DNA from: Thermoproteota archaeon
GTDB taxonomy: Archaea > Korarchaeota > Korarchaeia > Korarchaeales > Korarchaeaceae
DNA: 64,000 bases
Direction: 5' to 3'
Assembly: GCA_027491395.1 (NCBI GenBank)
Contig: JAOZFI010000041.1
Span: 32,001-96,000 of the forward strand
The notes below the pieces were generated by a model, which saw nothing but the letters and a program-made list of their open reading frames with translations, did not search any database and had not been told where the DNA came from. The translations under genes were made by a program, and so were the position numbers. Position 1 is the first letter of the stretch, and each line of letters opens with the position of its first letter. Below are positions 8,018 to 43,142 of this stretch, in pieces.

Positions 8018-8090
8018 TGGGCCGGGGGGGACTCGAACCCCCGACCTCCGCCTCGTAAGGGCGGCGTCATAGCCGCTAGACCACCGGCCC
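8018..8090 (-). tRNA. tRNA-Val(UAC)
   Basis: GGGCCGG acceptor stem, anticodon arm CCGCC-CT TAC GA-GGCGG, GTTCGAG T-loop. Confidence 0.95.
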
Positions 8091-8098
8091 TGTGAAAG

Positions 8099-8201
8099 TG
8101 GCGCCGGGGGAGGGATTCGAACCCTCGCGGCCCAATGGGCCACTGGCTTTCCGCAGGAGGCTTTAGCAGGCCAGCCCCCTACCAGGCTAGGGCACCCCGG
8201 C
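8099..8201 (-). tRNA. tRNA-Ser(GCU) with 15-nt canonical intron (8149-8163) and encoded CCA
   Basis: GCCGGGG/CCCCGGC acceptor, G73+CCA, long variable arm, CTGGC-CT GCT A-[AAGCCTCCTGCGGAA]-A-GCCAG forming a bulge-helix-bulge. Confidence 0.93.
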
Positions 8202-9590: not shown

Positions 9591-9665
9591 GCCCCGGTAG
9601 CTCAGCCCGGTCAGAGCGGCCGCCTCGTAAGCGGCAGGTCGCGGGTTCGAATCCCGCCCGGGGCT
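9591..9665 (+). tRNA. tRNA-Thr(CGU)
   Basis: GCCCCGG acceptor, GCCGC-CT CGT AA-GCGGC, GTTCGAA; TTTATTA box upstream. Confidence 0.96.
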
Positions 9666-9730
9666 CTCATTCAGAATATCCCTGAACTCTCAAATAAGTT
9701 TTACTAAATCTCATGGGGTCTCGGGGAGAA

Positions 9731-9804
9731 TGGGGCCGCCGGGATTTGAACCCGGGACCTCCGGCTCCCGAGGCCGGCATCCTACCAAGCTAGACCACGG
9801 CCCC
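9731..9804 (-). tRNA. tRNA-Pro(CGG)
   Basis: GGGGCCG acceptor, CCGGC-CT CGG GA-GCCGG, GTTCAAA. Confidence 0.96.
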
Positions 9805-13239: not shown

Positions 13240-13561
13240 GGGCGGTGGGGTAGGGCCGGGGGAGTAGCCGTCCCCTGAGCCGGAAGGCTAATGCCGGGGC
13301 CAGTAACTCCCGGGGGCGGTAGCGGGCAAGGAGCTCCCTCCCTCCCTCGGACCGATGATCTTTGGCGCTGGCGGGCCGCCGGTGGGGCATCCCCGTCCGG
13401 AGGGGCGGGGTGAGCCCCTTTACCACCGAAACGGGTCAGGCCCGGAAGGGAGCAGCCCTAAGGTGGACGGTCGGCGCTGCCAGTGTGCTGGGGTGAGCGT
13501 CCGGGGGAGAATGAGGGGGGGCTCCCGAACCCGCTATCCACCTCGGGGGAGCCCACCGCCC
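13240..13561 (+). ncRNA. ffs: Archaeal SRP (7S) RNA
   Basis: Very GC-rich ~320 nt; complementary ends GGGCGGTGGG/CCCACCGCCC; helix-8 motif GTCAGGCCCGGAAGGGAGCAGC at ~13435-13456; TTTTTATT box upstream. Confidence 0.93.
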
Positions 13562-21974: not shown

Positions 21975-22047
21975 GCCCCGGTAGCTCAGTTGGCAGAGCG
22001 GCCGCCTTGTAAGCGGCAGGTCGGGGGTTCGAGACCCCCCCGGGGCT
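21975..22047 (+). tRNA. tRNA-Thr(UGU)
   Basis: GCCCCGG acceptor, GCCGC-CT TGT AA-GCGGC, GTTCGAG; GAAAACTTATAT promoter upstream. Confidence 0.95.
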
Positions 22048-37415: not shown

Positions 37416-38477
37416 TTACGGGATTATCTCCGTAGTGTTATCGTAGGGAGGATAATATATCTCCTCTCGCTTCACCACGCCTTCCTCTATGAGAGATCTT
37501 ATTTCACCTACTCTTGACAAGACCTCGTCTATAGTCGCTTTAGTAACGGAGCACACGTCTCTGAAACCCTTCTCACCCCAATGTCTCTCCATGTAGGTGT
37601 AGAGGCATCTCCCTCCACAGTACTTGAAGTAGCTACAGCTCGTACAGGGCTCTCCTATGATAACCTTCCTCAGAATACCGCTCCTCACATCTCCCACAAC
37701 TGCCCACTCGGAGTCAACAGCGATGGGACAAGCCACTATCCTCCCGTCTGGGAGTAGGGTGAAAGTCTCAGAACCCGCGCCACAGGGAGGGCTCCTCCAC
37801 TCACCGAAGAGGGCCACCTTGGCTATCCCTAGAAACGGGACTATTCCTGTGACCTCCCCCTGCCTCATCCTCTCAACCCACAGGGAGACCAGTCTCCTTA
37901 TTCCAGGAAGGTATGAGTTATCAGCCCATTTCCTGAAATCCCACGGCTCGGTCCATATAACATTCAATTGCCAGTGGACATGGTCAAACAAACCAAGCTT
38001 GAGCAAATGAGTTACCTCCTCGAATATATCGCTGCGATCCCAGACAGTCATCCTAGCTATTAGGTCACCGCCATACCCAAGCTCCCTTAGGCGCTTGGCC
38101 GTTTTCAACACGGTATCGTAGTTCCCCTTGCCCCGGTAGTGGTCATTAACCTCCCTTCTTCCATCTATGGAGAGAAGTATGGCATCGAATCTCAACCAAT
38201 AATCCTCCTGCAGATTATCGAAGAGTGTCCCATTGGTTTGGATTATGAAACGCCTCCTAGGCCCTAGGGCATCCATGACATTCTCGATAAGTTTGGGATT
38301 GATCAGGGGCTCTCCACCATAAAAAGCGACATCCGCATCCAAGCTCTTGACTAGGGCTATCAGATCTTTTAGCTCGTACTGCTCCTTCGGGGGAACCAGA
38401 TGTGGAGGGAAGCTCCCTCCGCAGTAGGAGCACTTCAGATTACAGAGTCCGGTTGTGGTCACTATTAGGAGCGTCAT
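37416..38477 (-). CDS. Radical SAM/SPASM protein (AF0577/TIGR04084-like)
   Basis: CNLKCSYCGGS, FYGGEP, QTNG, CGAG..CP..CTSC..YCGGRC, C-terminal NTTEIIP. Confidence 0.85.
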   Translation of the reverse strand: MTLLIVTTTGLCNLKCSYCGGSFPPHLVPPKEQYELKDLIALVKSLDADVAFYGGEPLINPKLIENVMDALGPRRRFIIQTNGTLFDNLQEDYWLRFDAILLSIDGRREVNDHYRGKGNYDTVLKTAKRLRELGYGGDLIARMTVWDRSDIFEEVTHLLKLGLFDHVHWQLNVIWTEPWDFRKWADNSYLPGIRRLVSLWVERMRQGEVTGIVPFLGIAKVALFGEWRSPPCGAGSETFTLLPDGRIVACPIAVDSEWAVVGDVRSGILRKVIIGEPCTSCSYFKYCGGRCLYTYMERHWGEKGFRDVCSVTKATIDEVLSRVGEIRSLIEEGVVKREEIYYPPYDNTTEIIP

Positions 38478-38672
38478 AATCGAACGCTCCAAGTCCTCTC
38501 CACATAACTATAAGCTTTGCTTGTTTTTCTGAGGGAAATGGGCTGATTGAATGGTGAAATGGTGTACTGCTTACTCTTTAAAAATAATTTCATTTAATAT
38601 TCATATACCCCTATTATAAATCTAATTTACCGGTTTATCACATCTTTATTTTGCTAAATTGACGAAATGAAA

Positions 38673-38690
38673 CGAAAATCTTAAATATAA
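38673..38690 (+). promoter_or_regulatory. Putative BRE/TATA promoter driving the hairpin RNA
   Basis: CGAAAATC-TTAAATATAA, TATA about 25-29 nt before the hairpin 5' end (38710). Confidence 0.55.
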
Positions 38691-38709
38691 GCTCGGGATT
38701 AATAATCAC

Positions 38710-38820
38710 GGAGGAGGAATGGGGGGGTGAGAGGATGATCCCGGGGAGGAGGATCGGGCCTTAGATCCCCTCTCGGGGTGATCCTACCCTTCCACTCCTC
38801 CTCTCTGCACCAGCATTTTT
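38710..38820 (+). ncRNA. Putative unannotated structured ncRNA or 5' leader (long bulged hairpin)
   Basis: Nested pairings GGAGGAG/CTCCTCC, TGGGGGGGT/ACCCTTCCA, AGGAT/ATCCT, ATCCCGGG/CTCGGGGT, AGG/CCT, GGATC/GATCC; G-U pairs work only on the + strand; T5 tract at 38816-38820. Confidence 0.55.
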
Positions 38821-38880
38821 GGGTAATGTGGCCGATGGAAGATTTATCAATTTCTTATCCGGCCCTTAGTAGGTGATTTC

Positions 38881-40083
38881 ATGCTGAAGGTCTCCAAATG
38901 TAACAAGCTCCCCATGGACAGGCAACCCATTGAGATTGTTGAGAGAAAGGGCAAGGGCCATCCAGATACGATCACAGACGGTATAATGGAGAGGGTAGCT
39001 TTGGAGCTGAATAAGGAGTATCTCAGGAAGTTCGGTGGTATCCTCCATTACAACGCGGATAAGTCGCTGTTGGCTGCAGGCGTTACCGAGCCACAGTTCG
39101 GTGGAGGCAAGGTAATTGAACCCATGCTGATTGTTTTCGGTGACAGAGCCACTGTCTCCTATGCGGGAGAGTCCATAGACTTAGAAAAGATCGTCGTGAA
39201 CGCAGCTAAGAGCTGGATAAGGGAGAACCTACGGTTCGTCGATCCCGACGAGCATGTCCGCTATCAGATAGAGCTAAAACAGGGGAGTGCTGAGCTGACA
39301 GACATATTCAGGCGAGGCTCCGAGATAATGGGCGCCAACGATACATCAGCAGCTGTGGGCTATGCTCCACTCTCCAGAACTGAGAGGGTGGTTTTGGAGC
39401 TGGAGAAGTATCTGAACTCCCCAGAGTTCAAGAAGGAATTCGAGGAGACCGGTGAGGATATAAAGGTCATGGGAAGCCGGCACAACAATCACTTGGATCT
39501 GACCATAGCGCTCGCTTTCGTGGACAGGTTCGTTTCCAGCGAGCCAGAGTACTTCAGGAGTAAGCAAGAGGTCTTGGACAGGATTAACTCCTTCCTGAAG
39601 GAGAGGTTCGCGAATGACTTCGATAAAATCGATGTTCACATTAACACGCTAGATGTGGAGGGCAGGGGAGTACACGGTGTGTACCTGACCGTCTTAGGCA
39701 CTTCTGCCGAGGGAGGCGATTCGGGCCAGGTCGGCAGGGGGAACGGGGTCAACGGAGTCATCCCCCTGATGAGACCTAGGAGCTCGGAGGCGGCTGCCGG
39801 GAAGAACCCCGTCAGTCATGTAGGTAAGATATACAATGCATACACACACGAAATAGCTAGAAAGATAGTTAAGGAAGTGGAAGAAGTTCAGGAAGTCTAC
39901 GTCTGGCTGCTGAGCAGGATAGGAAAACCGATAAATGAGCCAGCGCTGGCCGCGGCGGAGGTGTACACCGAGGCGAACTTTGAGGACATAAAGGGGCAGA
40001 TAGAGGAGATCATTGCGTCAGAACTCGATAACATAGGGGAGTTCGTCAACAGGCTCATAGACGGGATGGTCCCCGTCTATTGA
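38881..40083 (+). CDS. mat: Archaeal S-adenosylmethionine synthetase
   Basis: EIVERKGKGHPD, ANDTS, GEDIKVMG, GTSAE.GDSGQVGRGN, AGKNPVSHVGK. Confidence 0.96.
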   Translation: MLKVSKCNKLPMDRQPIEIVERKGKGHPDTITDGIMERVALELNKEYLRKFGGILHYNADKSLLAAGVTEPQFGGGKVIEPMLIVFGDRATVSYAGESIDLEKIVVNAAKSWIRENLRFVDPDEHVRYQIELKQGSAELTDIFRRGSEIMGANDTSAAVGYAPLSRTERVVLELEKYLNSPEFKKEFEETGEDIKVMGSRHNNHLDLTIALAFVDRFVSSEPEYFRSKQEVLDRINSFLKERFANDFDKIDVHINTLDVEGRGVHGVYLTVLGTSAEGGDSGQVGRGNGVNGVIPLMRPRSSEAAAGKNPVSHVGKIYNAYTHEIARKIVKEVEEVQEVYVWLLSRIGKPINEPALAAAEVYTEANFEDIKGQIEEIIASELDNIGEFVNRLIDGMVPVY

Positions 40084-43000
40084 CCGCTCAGCGCCAAGTA
40101 GGTGAGGTATAGAGACCTCACTCTATCCTCCACTATTTCTCTGACCTTCTCCCTCAAGTACTTGGTGTATCTCCTCCAGTCGACCCCACTCCTCTCCTCA
40201 ATCTTACTCACAGACCTCTTGATCTCAACCAAAGCATCTTTTAGAGAGCGCTTTATCCCCCACATTCTCTTCGCTACCTCTTCCAAGGAGACGGGCGAGA
40301 TCCCTAGGAAGTCCTCCACCAATGGTCTCAATTCAACTACCTTTCCCTCGGATCTCAGTCCTTGGAGCACATAGACTAGGGTCTTCTGCCCCAGCATGGT
40401 TAGATCTCTAGTAAGGGAAGCGAAGTCCCAGCATATCAGTGCGAAACCCTCGTTAACGGCTTTCTCCAACCCAGATAGATCATAACTCTGCCCTTCAAAG
40501 AATTCCTTGGCTATCGTCTGGATACCCACATCCTCACCATCGAACACGGCTATAACCCCGAGGGTCACCGCGTCGGAGATGGGCATAACCACAGCATCCA
40601 TCGTCAGGATCTTGTGGGCCCTAGACGGCTTCGGAACGAGAAACTCCCTTCCCTCTAGGATCACAGATATTCTCTGCTTCAACAGGAGATAGCCAAGCGC
40701 CCTCTCGGCGAACTTCATGGCCAGATCCCACCTCAACCCCGAGACCACTAGCTCGTAATGGGCCTGATCATCTATCAGCATCATCAACACTTCAGATAGA
40801 TCGTCTGGCTGGAACCTTTCCACGTCCTTAAGCACCGCTGACCAATCTAACTGCTCGAGAAGACCAGCTGATTCAGGTTCGTGGAGAAGCAAAATTTTCT
40901 TATCCCCGATGTTCGTTACCTCGTAGGCTATTGCATCTATGGGTATCCCCTTCGAGACCCTCATGACCAGCATTAGAGTCGCTAGGCCTATTCTCAGCCA
41001 AGTCAGGTCCTCGCCGGGATCGAGCTCGATCGATAGTCCATAGGTGTAATCCCTATAAACACCCCCGGTGGGTCCTATGACCGGGAGGGACTTGCTCTCC
41101 CTTATGAACAGGGTCTTACCATCTAGGGGGACTGGCCTAACCTTGGAGGAGGTCACCTTCCAGTAGACCCTGTTAGGGACCTTCGTTTTCACTCCGAACC
41201 CGTCGGTGGGAGGATCCACAACGCACACCACCTCACTCCCGATCCTCCCTCTGTAATAATCGTCTATCATGTCCGCTCTCTCTCCCCACTCCGCCTTGGT
41301 CCTCTCGTACTCCTCTATCACGAAGGCGAGCGGATCGAAGGAGTAGATCGTAGAGTAGTTCAGGGGCTCCTCTATTATCCCTGTTATGACCCTCCCCCTC
41401 CTGAGGAAGTCAACCACCACAGAATCGTTGCTATAGTCTATGGATCCCGGCTGAAATCTCTCGACCAAGTCGCAGTGCCCTATGTCTTCCAAGTATCGGA
41501 GATTGCCGTCCTCCCTCAGCGCTCGCTTGAACCCGTAGGGCGGCCCGAACTCATAGAAGTTGAGGTTATCCCAGACCCTCTTCCCACGCTGGGTGAGGCC
41601 TGATGGGGAAATGAGCCCTAACTCCTTTAGGAGATTTATCTCCTCCTGATCCAGTTGATCCCGGAGCCGAGGATGGACGAACTTGTAGAGCCCCTCGAAT
41701 AGTATGGAGTACTTGTTCTTCGGATTGACGAGGGCGACCTCCAGGGGGAGCTGAAGCCACTGCTCCACGGCCTCCACGCCTCTCAGAAGGAGCTCCTTGT
41801 CCCATCTGTACATGGGAAAGATCACCGTCTCCGTCCAACCCAACTCCTCTCTCCTGCCCTTCCTGCCCTCTCTCTGCTTGAATTCGCGGACACTCTCTGG
41901 CATGCCCAAGTGGACTACCCTCACCACCGTTCCGATGTCCAATCCTTGGGATAGCGTTCTGGGGCTTATCAGGACCTTGATCCCTCCCCTCCGAGCCGCT
42001 TCCTCTATCTCCTCCCTCTCCTCCTTAGAAACTAAGTGATGATGAGAGGCGACATCCTCCATTCCAAATTCCGTTTTGAGTCTCCTCTTCAGACTTTCCG
42101 CAGACCTTATGCCCCTAGTGAAGACTAGAGTGACCCCATCGTCCTCGGAGTAGTGGTATATCACCTCAGCCGGATCCATCTCGGGCTGGGGAACTTCAAT
42201 GCCAACGGATCTTAAGAGTTCAACCACTCGATATACATCCCTTTCAAACCTCTTATAATCGGCGATCGCCTCCCTCAGGTCCCCACCTATTGGAAGACTA
42301 AGGAGCTCATCCCTGTACCTCTGAACGACCTCCCAGATCCGCTCCATGTTCTTGCCCAGGACGAGGTAGACCTCGTTTCTCACCCTGAACGGTTTTCCCC
42401 TTATGATCACGGTCTCCCTAGCGTTTATCGACGTCAAACACTCAGCAAGTTCCTCTGGATTCCCCAGCGTCGCGGTGAGGATCACGAATTGGGGGGACTT
42501 CTCCACCAAGAGGGAAATTATCCTCATCATGGAGACTATGAGGGCGAGCTCCCTAGGCCCGTAGAAATCGAGCTCGTCCACCACCAGTAGGTCCATACCT
42601 CTCACGAAGTCAGATAAGTAGGATCCCTTCGTGGCCATCCTCTTTAGATCCGTCATGAAAAAAGCCGGATTCGTTATCAGGAGATCGATATTCGAGATCT
42701 TGGTCCTCAAACCGCTCCTCCCCAACTCCTTGATCAAGATGGTCCTCCTCCTCGCATCTATCACTTGGGAGCTGATGCCCAGCGCCTTGGAGTACTCCTC
42801 GAGCCTCCTTACCTGGTCGTTAGCTAATGCTAGGGTCGGGTATATGGCCAGTGCCCGCTTGCCCTTAGCGGCGTAGAAGAACCAAGCCTCCGTCTTGCCG
42901 CTACCGGTCCCGGAAATCAGGATGACGTTTTTACCCTCCTCCAGTGCCTTGAGAGCTTCGACTTGGTGCGAGTAGAGTCTCATGTCAGCGATCTCCGAGG

Positions 43001-43142
43001 GTTTACCAGGATAGGATCTAAGTGAGGGGGCTAGGTCCCCGAAGGTCAGGTCGATCCTCTCGGGTTTGATCTCTTCCTCTGAATAGGTCCTGTAGTTGTA
43101 ACCTAGGAACTCCAAGAGGGTTGAGGAGGATACGCGAGTCAA
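40077..43142 (-). CDS. SF2 helicase, SftH/Hrq1/YprA-like, with long C-terminal extension
   Basis: LYSHQ, GTGSGKT, YPTLALANDQ, DELD, TATLGNP, QREGRKGR. Confidence 0.85.
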   Translation of the reverse strand: MTRVSSSTLLEFLGYNYRTYSEEEIKPERIDLTFGDLAPSLRSYPGKPSEIADMRLYSHQVEALKALEEGKNVILISGTGSGKTEAWFFYAAKGKRALAIYPTLALANDQVRRLEEYSKALGISSQVIDARRRTILIKELGRSGLRTKISNIDLLITNPAFFMTDLKRMATKGSYLSDFVRGMDLLVVDELDFYGPRELALIVSMMRIISLLVEKSPQFVILTATLGNPEELAECLTSINARETVIIRGKPFRVRNEVYLVLGKNMERIWEVVQRYRDELLSLPIGGDLREAIADYKRFERDVYRVVELLRSVGIEVPQPEMDPAEVIYHYSEDDGVTLVFTRGIRSAESLKRRLKTEFGMEDVASHHHLVSKEEREEIEEAARRGGIKVLISPRTLSQGLDIGTVVRVVHLGMPESVREFKQREGRKGRREELGWTETVIFPMYRWDKELLLRGVEAVEQWLQLPLEVALVNPKNKYSILFEGLYKFVHPRLRDQLDQEEINLLKELGLISPSGLTQRGKRVWDNLNFYEFGPPYGFKRALREDGNLRYLEDIGHCDLVERFQPGSIDYSNDSVVVDFLRRGRVITGIIEEPLNYSTIYSFDPLAFVIEEYERTKAEWGERADMIDDYYRGRIGSEVVCVVDPPTDGFGVKTKVPNRVYWKVTSSKVRPVPLDGKTLFIRESKSLPVIGPTGGVYRDYTYGLSIELDPGEDLTWLRIGLATLMLVMRVSKGIPIDAIAYEVTNIGDKKILLLHEPESAGLLEQLDWSAVLKDVERFQPDDLSEVLMMLIDDQAHYELVVSGLRWDLAMKFAERALGYLLLKQRISVILEGREFLVPKPSRAHKILTMDAVVMPISDAVTLGVIAVFDGEDVGIQTIAKEFFEGQSYDLSGLEKAVNEGFALICWDFASLTRDLTMLGQKTLVYVLQGLRSEGKVVELRPLVEDFLGISPVSLEEVAKRMWGIKRSLKDALVEIKRSVSKIEERSGVDWRRYTKYLREKVREIVEDRVRSLYLTYLALSGQ

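Follow-up and report, generated by a model that had tools for sequence, protein, structure and literature searches.

A predicted rod-like small RNA with a candidate nine-codon reading frame, found upstream of a korarchaeal S-adenosylmethionine synthetase gene and at unrelated loci in relatives

The DNA analysed here, called the window throughout, is a 64,000-nt stretch of a Thermoproteota archaeon of the Korarchaeaceae (assembly GCA_027491395.1, contig JAOZFI010000041.1, positions 32,001 to 96,000). It contains mat, the gene for archaeal S-adenosylmethionine (SAM) synthetase, a divergently oriented gene for a radical SAM/SPASM protein and, in the AT-rich spacer between the two, a GC-rich hairpin that is the subject of this report (Table 1). 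An earlier note on this DNA, made from the sequence alone, drew attention to the hairpin and took it for either a new class of small RNA or a SAM-responsive leader or attenuator of mat; it did not mention the Shine-Dalgarno (SD) sequence, the AUG and the nine-codon frame that lie inside it. Judged from its own sequence and those of its relatives, the element appears to be a small RNA that carries a tiny open reading frame (ORF), and a nine-codon frame with a self-locking SD is unusual.

Table 1. Features in and around the spacer upstream of mat, in window coordinates
Feature	Position	Strand	Remarks
Radical SAM/SPASM protein, divergent neighbour	37416..38492	-	TIGR04084, 468 bits against a cutoff of 225
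Predicted promoter of the small RNA	38673..38687	+	A-rich B recognition element (BRE) CGAAAAT and TATA box CTTAAATA (TTTAAATA in relatives)
Rod-like hairpin RNA	38710..38804	+	39 pairs, unbranched; apical loop of 8 nt (GGGCCUUA) at 38756-38763
Extended SD GGGGGGGUGA	38721..38730	+	Paired in the stem with the 3' strand
Candidate nine-codon micro-ORF	38735..38764	+	ATG ATC CCG GGG AGG AGG ATC GGG CCT TAG (MIPGRRIGP*); stop straddles the apical loop
T5 tract, likely archaeal terminator of the small RNA	38816..38820	+	Read from sequence
mat TATA box TTTATCAA	38843..38850	+	BRE GGAAGA just upstream
mat, archaeal SAM synthetase	38881..40083	+	PF01941, E 8.8e-161; NF003363, 628 bits; given for context only

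The hairpin has a minimum free energy (MFE) of -70.1 kcal/mol, compared with a mean of -50.2 for 200 dinucleotide shuffles, none of which is as stable (0/200, z -5.06). Its MFE and centroid structures are both a single unbranched helix, as they are in the relatives described below, and the rod is still predicted to be folded at 85 C (-17.2 kcal/mol). The rod-like form proposed in the earlier note is therefore borne out, and so is most of its detail: the GAG bulge (3 nt, at 38729-31), the G-G mismatch (38737/38780) and the 8-nt loop are all there, together with two single-A bulges, while in place of the proposed GAA bulge the MFE structure has a 1x1 A/C mismatch at 38719. The complementary strand folds more weakly (-58.3 kcal/mol), and a covariance model scores the plus strand at 123.6 bits and the minus strand at 37.0. 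In a tally over the 11-species structural alignment there are 57 G-U cells and 9 A-C cells; because G-U so far outnumbers A-C, selection acts on the plus-strand RNA, which is what the note had argued from the G-U pairs of the window.

The note had recommended a count of genomic copies and an Rfam search. The 1.72-Mb assembly holds one copy of the element: BLAST against its own genome returns the element alone, and the covariance models find one locus per genome (with only some 100 first-look candidates scored in each). A search of the whole window brought no Rfam family up to its gathering score on the hairpin, nor did a search of the loci of five relatives. When positions 38500-38950 were searched down to E <= 10, generic miRNA-precursor hairpin models (14-23 bits) fell on the hairpin and a ylbH-leader match overlapped its 5' half (38682-38779, 20.5 bits, where the gathering score is 50); the remaining weak matches lie beside it. 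Even at that threshold no model of a SAM riboswitch, the signal recognition particle (SRP) RNA, or a C/D or H/ACA RNA falls on the hairpin, in agreement with the note's impression that it has no tRNA, SRP, C/D or H/ACA layout. With no Rfam family, a single copy and the compensatory changes given next, the suggestion of a new small RNA class has held up.

Among the 43 genomes of the phylum that were searched, 16 carry the element, one copy each; the remainder count as "not found" rather than "absent", as some genomes are incomplete and each was searched to the depth of candidates just given. In the genus of the window genome (g1) the hairpin precedes mat in 11 of the 20 genomes where mat was found (G000, which is the window genome, and G002, G004, G006, G008, G009, G010, G011, G012, G014 and G020) and not in the other nine. 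The upstream regions of mat in these relatives covary, as the note had proposed to look for. In a model-derived alignment (A4), which misplaces the 3' strand in three divergent species, 85.0% of cells pair compared with 50-66% when the strands are slid, and 12 pairs have two-sided changes, a number not reached in any of 500 column shuffles (5.4 +/- 1.6) and to be compared with 1-6 in slid controls. A second alignment (A6, 11 rows after three reverse-strand rows were removed) was fitted to the model structure and hence is biased towards it; here 365 of 387 cells pair (94.3%, versus 54-65% slid) and 13 of the 39 pairs have two-sided changes (0-3 in slid controls). The basal stem is rewritten among species, being GGAGGAGGA/UCCUCCUCU in the window and GGAAGAUUGA/UCAAUCUUCC in G009.

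The family extends beyond mat. A model made from the mat-linked copies (R2), run over the 40 genomes of the class, gave a single extra match with E <= 0.01, G028:C65:5518-5599 (27 bits), and BLAST with that locus located the same element in G031, G021 and G025; these four species belong to a sister genus, g2. A model built from the four g2 copies (R3) in turn matched G003:C16:155175-155270 (29.2 bits, E 2.5e-4). G003 is a g1 species without a mat-linked copy, and its RNA lies about 120 nt upstream of the gene for aEF-2. In common with the window it has an exact 16-mer, GGGGGGTGAGAGGATG, as well as GGACCTTAG, and in common with g2 it has GTGGGAGG-CC; its promoter, ACGAAAG ATTTATAAGCT, resembles the window's ACGAAAAT CTTAAATATAAGCT, and its terminator reads GGCTTTTTTG. 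By these sequences G003 bridges the mat-linked and g2 forms. The rods of the other forms are likewise stable, at -49.9 kcal/mol (z -6.6) in G003 and -58.5 kcal/mol (z -4.2) in G028. In the four g2 species the RNA lies downstream of a PF05552 mechanosensitive-channel-like gene, and the next genes vary (examined in G028, G031 and G025). No copy of the g2 type was found 3' of the channel-like gene in the g1 genomes G002, G012 and G008. The orthologue of that gene in the window genome (G000:C3:3-590, minus strand, locus L142) runs off the end of its contig.

The g2 copies also have some peculiarities of form. Those of G031, G021 and G025 (L135:1487-1500, L136 and L137) begin with an additional hairpin, GGGGCGAAAGCCCC, capped by a GAAA loop, which is not present in G028, G003 or the mat-linked copies. 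In G028, instead, an additional stretch of about 45 nt, which includes a small CUCUCGCGAGAG hairpin, separates rod and T tract. Below the apical stem of the g2 rods (L133:5560-5575, minus strand, in G028, and the equivalent positions of the others) there is an asymmetric 4x2 internal loop, GGGA/GA, that g1 does not have; it is reminiscent of a kink-turn (K-turn) but has two loop bases only.

Wider searches added no lineage. A pattern scan of metagenomes gave four loci, three of them contigs of G002, G012 and G011 and the fourth identical to G009 in the region, and phage and plasmid collections held no match to the element. Thirteen viral-contig matches to 5' core patterns, at 12.8 bits or less, were rejected as family members. 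In the 40 genomes of the class the pattern GGTGRGAGG(N)ATG also matched in G013 and G016, where it marks ordinary gene starts (483 and 253 aa), and in G000:C21, G027 and G039, where there is no rod.

What the copies have in common outside the rod is a set of apparent transcription signals. In the window the BRE/TATA lies 31 nt 5' of the stem, the expected start being the first G of the stem. A TATA-like box after a GAAA-type stretch is present in 15/15 members whose upstream sequence is known, and in these 15 copies the distance from the first TATA base to the first structured base is 31-32 nt, constant in all three genomic contexts; we infer that transcription starts at the first base of the stem. 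Seven of the 11 mat-linked copies, three of the four g2 copies and the copy of G003 have T5 or a longer run 3' of the rod; G010 and G031 have T4 only, and G014, G020 and G004 have no T5 run before the mat TATA. The tract does not abut the rod but lies 11-60 nt past it. The earlier note's BRE/TATA at the right distance and its T5 tract both stand. The TATA box of the small RNA is also the second copy of a direct repeat (TAACTATAAGCT at 38505-38516 and TAAATATAAGCT at 38682-38693, 177 nt apart), the first copy of which looks like a second promoter-like box in the AT-rich spacer.

Thus the element appears, on comparison of these loci, to be a lineage-restricted small RNA family with at least three unrelated neighbourhoods, and because the gene has occupied that many, its position before mat looks like an accident of descent within one sub-clade. 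This bears directly on the note's other suggestion, a SAM-responsive leader, which is not supported. That the hairpin is a riboswitch for SAM or S-adenosylhomocysteine (SAH) controlling mat is suggested by its place directly upstream of that gene and on the same strand, but this location is the only thing it shares with the SAM riboswitch classes. It matches none of their models, it is a rod with no junction or pseudoknot to form a ligand pocket instead of a multi-helix architecture, and it appears to have its own terminator just as mat has its own promoter. Moreover, family members lie upstream of aEF-2 in G003 and after the PF05552 gene in g2, loci unrelated to SAM, with no consistent link to methionine or SAM genes. 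The element is almost certainly not such a riboswitch.

The same distribution argues against a relic of a mobile element, of the type of a miniature inverted-repeat transposable element (MITE), or a palindrome that acts at the DNA level as a cruciform or operator. Relative to congeners, the hairpin sits in an AT-rich insert of about 315 nt between the radical SAM gene and mat, and the gene evidently changed location during evolution, both of which could be read in this way. However, there is one copy per genome, not the dispersed copies that the note had named as the mark of a MITE, no flanking direct repeats were found, the phage, plasmid and viral-contig searches above were empty or weak, and the excess of G-U over A-C cells speaks for selection on RNA. 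We regard a mobile or DNA-level origin as highly improbable.

The block most conserved across the family is not a structural motif but the SD, AUG and frame. All 16 copies have an extended SD (GGGRGGUGR), then 4-5 nt, an AUG and a frame; after a run of G, GUGRGA is invariant in 16/16 members, and 2-3 variable bases later so is the AUG. The 3' end of 16S rRNA, which is unassembled in G000, reads GGATCACCTCC in the close relative G002 (95% identity to the window in the small RNA), and GGGRGGUGR can form about nine pairs with this end. The SD and AUG of the hairpin are spaced by 4 nt, as are those of mat. Across this genome GGTGA-N4-ATG occurs 161 times, and 117 of these sites lead into an ORF of 60 aa or more, compared with 92/163 for a 5-nt and only 11/92 for a 3-nt spacer.

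The frame has nine sense codons in 15 of the 16 copies and eight in G008, where a 3-nt deletion is in frame, and the stop is TGA instead of TAG in G009; in the other two frames the first stop is scattered, after 0-43 codons. The distance from AUG to stop is kept even though the stop falls in different parts of the fold: the apical loop (window), the apical stem (G003) or past that stem (g2). The predicted peptides are MIPGRRIGP and variants of it in the mat-linked copies, MWVGGPIGP in G003 and M[RS]VGGPV[ER]G in g2, and every frame ends Pro-stop or Gly-stop. At seven codons the third position varies while the residue stays the same (GGG/GGA, CTC/CTT, AGG/AGA, ATC/ATT/ATA, GGG/GGA, CCG/CCT and GGC/GGT). 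Of 231 cells per strand in the upper stem, 25 are non-majority on the strand that carries the ORF and 50 on the partner strand; in the basal stem, with 198 cells per strand, the counts are equal (36 versus 39). In G014 and G020 about 10 nt of the 3' strand are lost, and SD and ORF are intact. On the reading given next, the frame would be transcribed and translated.

The reading that we favour, at about an even chance of being right, is an independent small RNA family in which each RNA is a mini-mRNA whose ribosome site is locked by an anti-SD-like strand. It would be a free-standing small gene, with a strong BRE/TATA promoter, a start at the first base of the stem and an oligo-T terminator, and the rod of about 95 nt followed by oligo-T would give an RNA of about 110 nt that serves as a mini-mRNA or a dual-function RNA. 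In the finished RNA the 3' strand, a look-alike of the anti-SD (in G003 it contains UCACCUCC verbatim), would pair with the SD and lock the ribosome site. With the SD so paired, ribosomes would have to load on the nascent chain while the 3' strand is still unmade, or else wait until the rod has melted.

Several observations weigh against this reading. The ribosome-binding site (RBS) is buried in a rod that is predicted to persist at 85 C, which would be a hindrance to translation, and the SD is weaker in G004 (AGTGA). The peptide is loosely conserved, with replacements at 7 of the 8 positions after Met, and nine residues are fewer than in nearly any known functional peptide. A G-rich 5' strand makes chance SD-like words and stop-free runs easier, and since the 16 copies represent only about eight lineages in three deep groups, the constant frame could in part reflect inheritance and a constant hairpin size. 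In addition, the homology of the g1 and g2 forms depends on weak model scores (17-29 bits) and on the G003 bridge, and the model alignment of G028 sets its AUG opposite a GUG of the window.

Some of the same facts would be expected of a non-coding structured RNA, in which the rod itself is functional, for example as a protein-binding RNA or a decoy that binds the 30S subunit, GGGRGGUGR...AUG is a recognition site, and the short frame arises incidentally from a G-rich strand together with a loop in which UAG or UGA happens to fall. The strong, strand-specific covariation of the rod, the loose conservation of the peptide, an SD and AUG that are mostly paired in a rod predicted to be stable at 85 C, and the small number of independent lineages all agree with it. 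It does less well with the AUG, which is invariant amid variable positions although its pairing partner is not conserved: the AUG is base-paired in the window, falls within an internal loop in G003 and is free of pairing in G009. Nor does it account readily for a stop that stays 27 nt from the AUG in differing structural locations, for the in-frame deletion of G008 and the TAG-to-TGA change of G009, for an SD-AUG spacing equal to the 4-5 nt that the genome prefers, or for an ORF strand of the upper stem that is twice as conserved as its partner. A purely non-coding RNA is possible but, on balance, somewhat unlikely.

By analogy, the nearest documented system for the putative mini-mRNA appears to be mccA of the Escherichia coli microcin C operon, in which the length of the ORF is reportedly conserved across relatives. 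The passages of Zukher et al. (2014; PMC4231749) that concern it describe a 7-codon ORF on an abundant, terminator-bounded short transcript that depends on ribosome binding. As in mccA, the ORF of our element is SD-led, has under ten codons and lies on a (predicted) short transcript, with a likely terminator soon after the ORF; unlike mccA, the element is archaeal rather than bacterial and plasmid-borne, has no neighbour like the peptide-modifying MccB that follows mccA, and holds its ORF inside a 39-bp rod that hides the ORF's own RBS. An mccA-type precursor mini-gene was rejected as a class for the element, there being no MccB-like neighbour and the neighbours being different in G003 and g2.

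The gene divergent from mat raises the related idea that the frame encodes a precursor peptide for that radical SAM/SPASM enzyme, by analogy with tiny precursor genes of the mccA type. The enzyme, a TIGR04084 protein, has weaker similarity to many SPASM peptide maturases, and the microcin C precursor, with 7 codons on an abundant short transcript, is documented in the same passages of PMC4231749. On the other hand, in the nine congeners without the hairpin mat is preceded by a short spacer (about 90 nt, estimated from sequence) and then by minus-strand coding sequence that, judged by alignment, matches the beginning of the TIGR04084 gene, so the enzyme gene appears to be kept where the RNA is not, and no such enzyme is among the examined neighbours of the RNA in G003 and g2. 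SPASM-type maturases normally recognise a leader on their precursor, and nine residues leave no room for one. Such a precursor role is very improbable. Apart from this, mat and the radical SAM gene look like a conserved pair, a maker and a user of SAM.

The promoter region of mat itself is as the earlier note had supposed, with a second TATA box and an AGGTGA SD; the SD is at 38871-38876 (GGTGA at 38872-38876), 4 nt 5' of the ATG. In every genus member compared, whether or not the hairpin is present, the BRE/TATA lies 38-39 nt before the ATG of mat. A strong GGTGA SD at 4-nt spacing is found on mat solely in the 11 hairpin-carrying species, whereas the nine congeners without the hairpin have none, or GGTG only in the case of G003. 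Given this pattern mat could also be translated from a long read-through leader; it belongs to a single clade and so counts as one event. The mat TATA box is also flanked by an imperfect inverted repeat that we noted by eye, GGCCGATGGAAGA ... TCTTATCCGGCC (38830-38865), which might be the operator of a regulator; it is not among the repeats detected at seed 7 and is only partly conserved in G008, G009, G014 and G004. Pairing of the freed 3' strand of the rod with the RBS of mat, sought by eye, amounts to 5-6 pairs at most and is not convincing.

A read-through leader is part of a third explanation, in which the element is a cis-acting, translation-coupled leader or attenuator: transcription from the strong distal promoter would stop at the T tract or read through into the next gene (mat, or aEF-2 in G003), and the loading or stalling of ribosomes on the nine-codon frame would set the ratio. 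Leader and arrest peptides are well known from trpL-type attenuators, ErmCL, TnaC and SecM and, in eukaryotes, from the AdoMetDC upstream ORF with its peptide MAGDIS. The element resembles them in having a short SD-led frame within an RNA structure before a gene (GGUGA-N4-AUG and nine codons at 38726-38764, and in 16/16 copies), followed by a T tract as with bacterial leader peptides. There is a co-directional gene in the contexts examined, namely mat in 11 genomes, aEF-2 in G003 and a same-strand gene in G028, G031 and G025, although co-directionality in three contexts has a probability of about 1 in 8 by chance. The strong mat SD confined to carriers of the element is what a long leader would lead one to expect, the three mat-linked copies without a T5 before mat (G014, G020 and G004) fit read-through, and in mccA, according to the passages of PMC4231749 cited above, binding of ribosomes to the 7-codon ORF can control termination.

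Other observations count against an attenuator. A conserved mat promoter stands between the T tract and the ATG, so that the downstream gene has a promoter of its own, and the downstream genes differ by context, those of g2 being unrelated. The predictions give a single dominant rod, and no conserved alternative terminator/antiterminator pairing was found in the family; an alternative local hairpin (GAUCC.../...GGAUC) is the free MFE structure in G014, G020 and G004 only. The T tract is 11-60 nt past the rod. Finally, no frame in the family has a Met codon after the start, and there is no run of cognate codons and no repeated codon common to its members. We consider attenuation of the following gene rather unlikely.

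A more speculative and quite improbable extension of the attenuator, by analogy with the leader peptides, takes the family for a translation-sensing cassette of Archaea in which SAM supply is gauged by way of the translation apparatus and not by a riboswitch. The very strong SD would load a pioneer ribosome on the nascent RNA; release at the Pro-stop or Gly-stop would be sensitive to the SAM-dependent methylation of the release-factor GGQ motif; and the dwell time of the ribosome would govern closure of the rod, followed by a stop at the T tract or a run-on into mat or aEF-2. As stated in the passages of PMC13672221 that cite Pierson 2016, peptide release at Pro-stop and Gly-stop is the most dependent on GGQ methylation, and the endings of our frames share these slow-release contexts with leader and arrest peptides; that paper itself observed no such effect on release in a yeast reconstituted system.

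Returning to the putative mini-mRNA, other known classes of RNA were compared with it. The dual-function RNAs SgrS/SgrT, RNAIII/hld and SR1/SR1P encode peptides of 26-43 residues and have known base-pairing targets. They are similar to the element in being structured, independently transcribed (predicted, in the case of the element) small RNAs with an embedded short ORF, and dissimilar in that the frame of the element has only nine codons. Klein, Misulovin and Eddy are said to have described in 2002 the Hgc RNAs, small RNAs of hyperthermophilic archaea from GC-rich islands; a structured GC-rich island in an AT-rich spacer with a promoter of its own is similar to these, but there is no Rfam gathering-score match on the hairpin in the window or in the loci of five relatives.

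Four further classes were considered and rejected. A box C/D small RNA is not supported by any C/D family on the hairpin (snoR22 at 38643-38715, 20.1 bits, and sR47 at 38831-38900, 12.1 bits, flank it), and the UGAU words of the window are gone from the 3' strand in G009, G014, G004 and G008. For an H/ACA small RNA there is no large internal loop, and the sequence 3' of the rod is variable, without a conserved ANA box. The GAG bulge is followed by A-U and G-C pairs and closes into Watson-Crick pairs in G008 and G011, and so is not a K-turn bound by L7Ae. Lastly, type I toxins are hydrophobic peptides of about 19 aa or more with an antisense RNA, and the nine residues predicted here are rich in Gly, Arg and Pro and not hydrophobic.

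The remaining neighbours in the window are a methyltransferase, an isochorismatase and a helicase. The last is a DEAD/DEAH-box protein of 1021 aa (40077-43142, minus strand) convergent with mat; the ORF listed for it runs over the final 7 nt of that gene. Elsewhere the window contains an archaeal SRP RNA (155.6 bits) and five tRNA matches, the coordinates for these being 13243-13558 (plus strand), 8018-8201 (minus strand), 9591-9804 and 21975-22047; one tRNA match is 100 nt long (8102-8201), with room for an intron.

All hosts of this RNA are uncultured and known from assemblies only, and few small RNA families backed by covariation are known from uncultured archaea. We know of no conserved SD-led nine-codon frame in Archaea, and a literature search, at the level of a survey of titles, gave no archaeal leader peptide, no such frame and no description of this RNA. 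The comparison removes a tempting false lead, in that the hairpin before mat is not an archaeal SAM riboswitch. Should the translation-sensing cassette be real after all, no leader-peptide attenuator would have been described in Archaea before it. Translation of the frame, if it occurs, would place it with the shortest of the known conserved genes. The RNA would then also exemplify cleanly how an anti-SD mimic can lock an RBS, in a layout that couples translation to transcription, a process still poorly mapped in Archaea.

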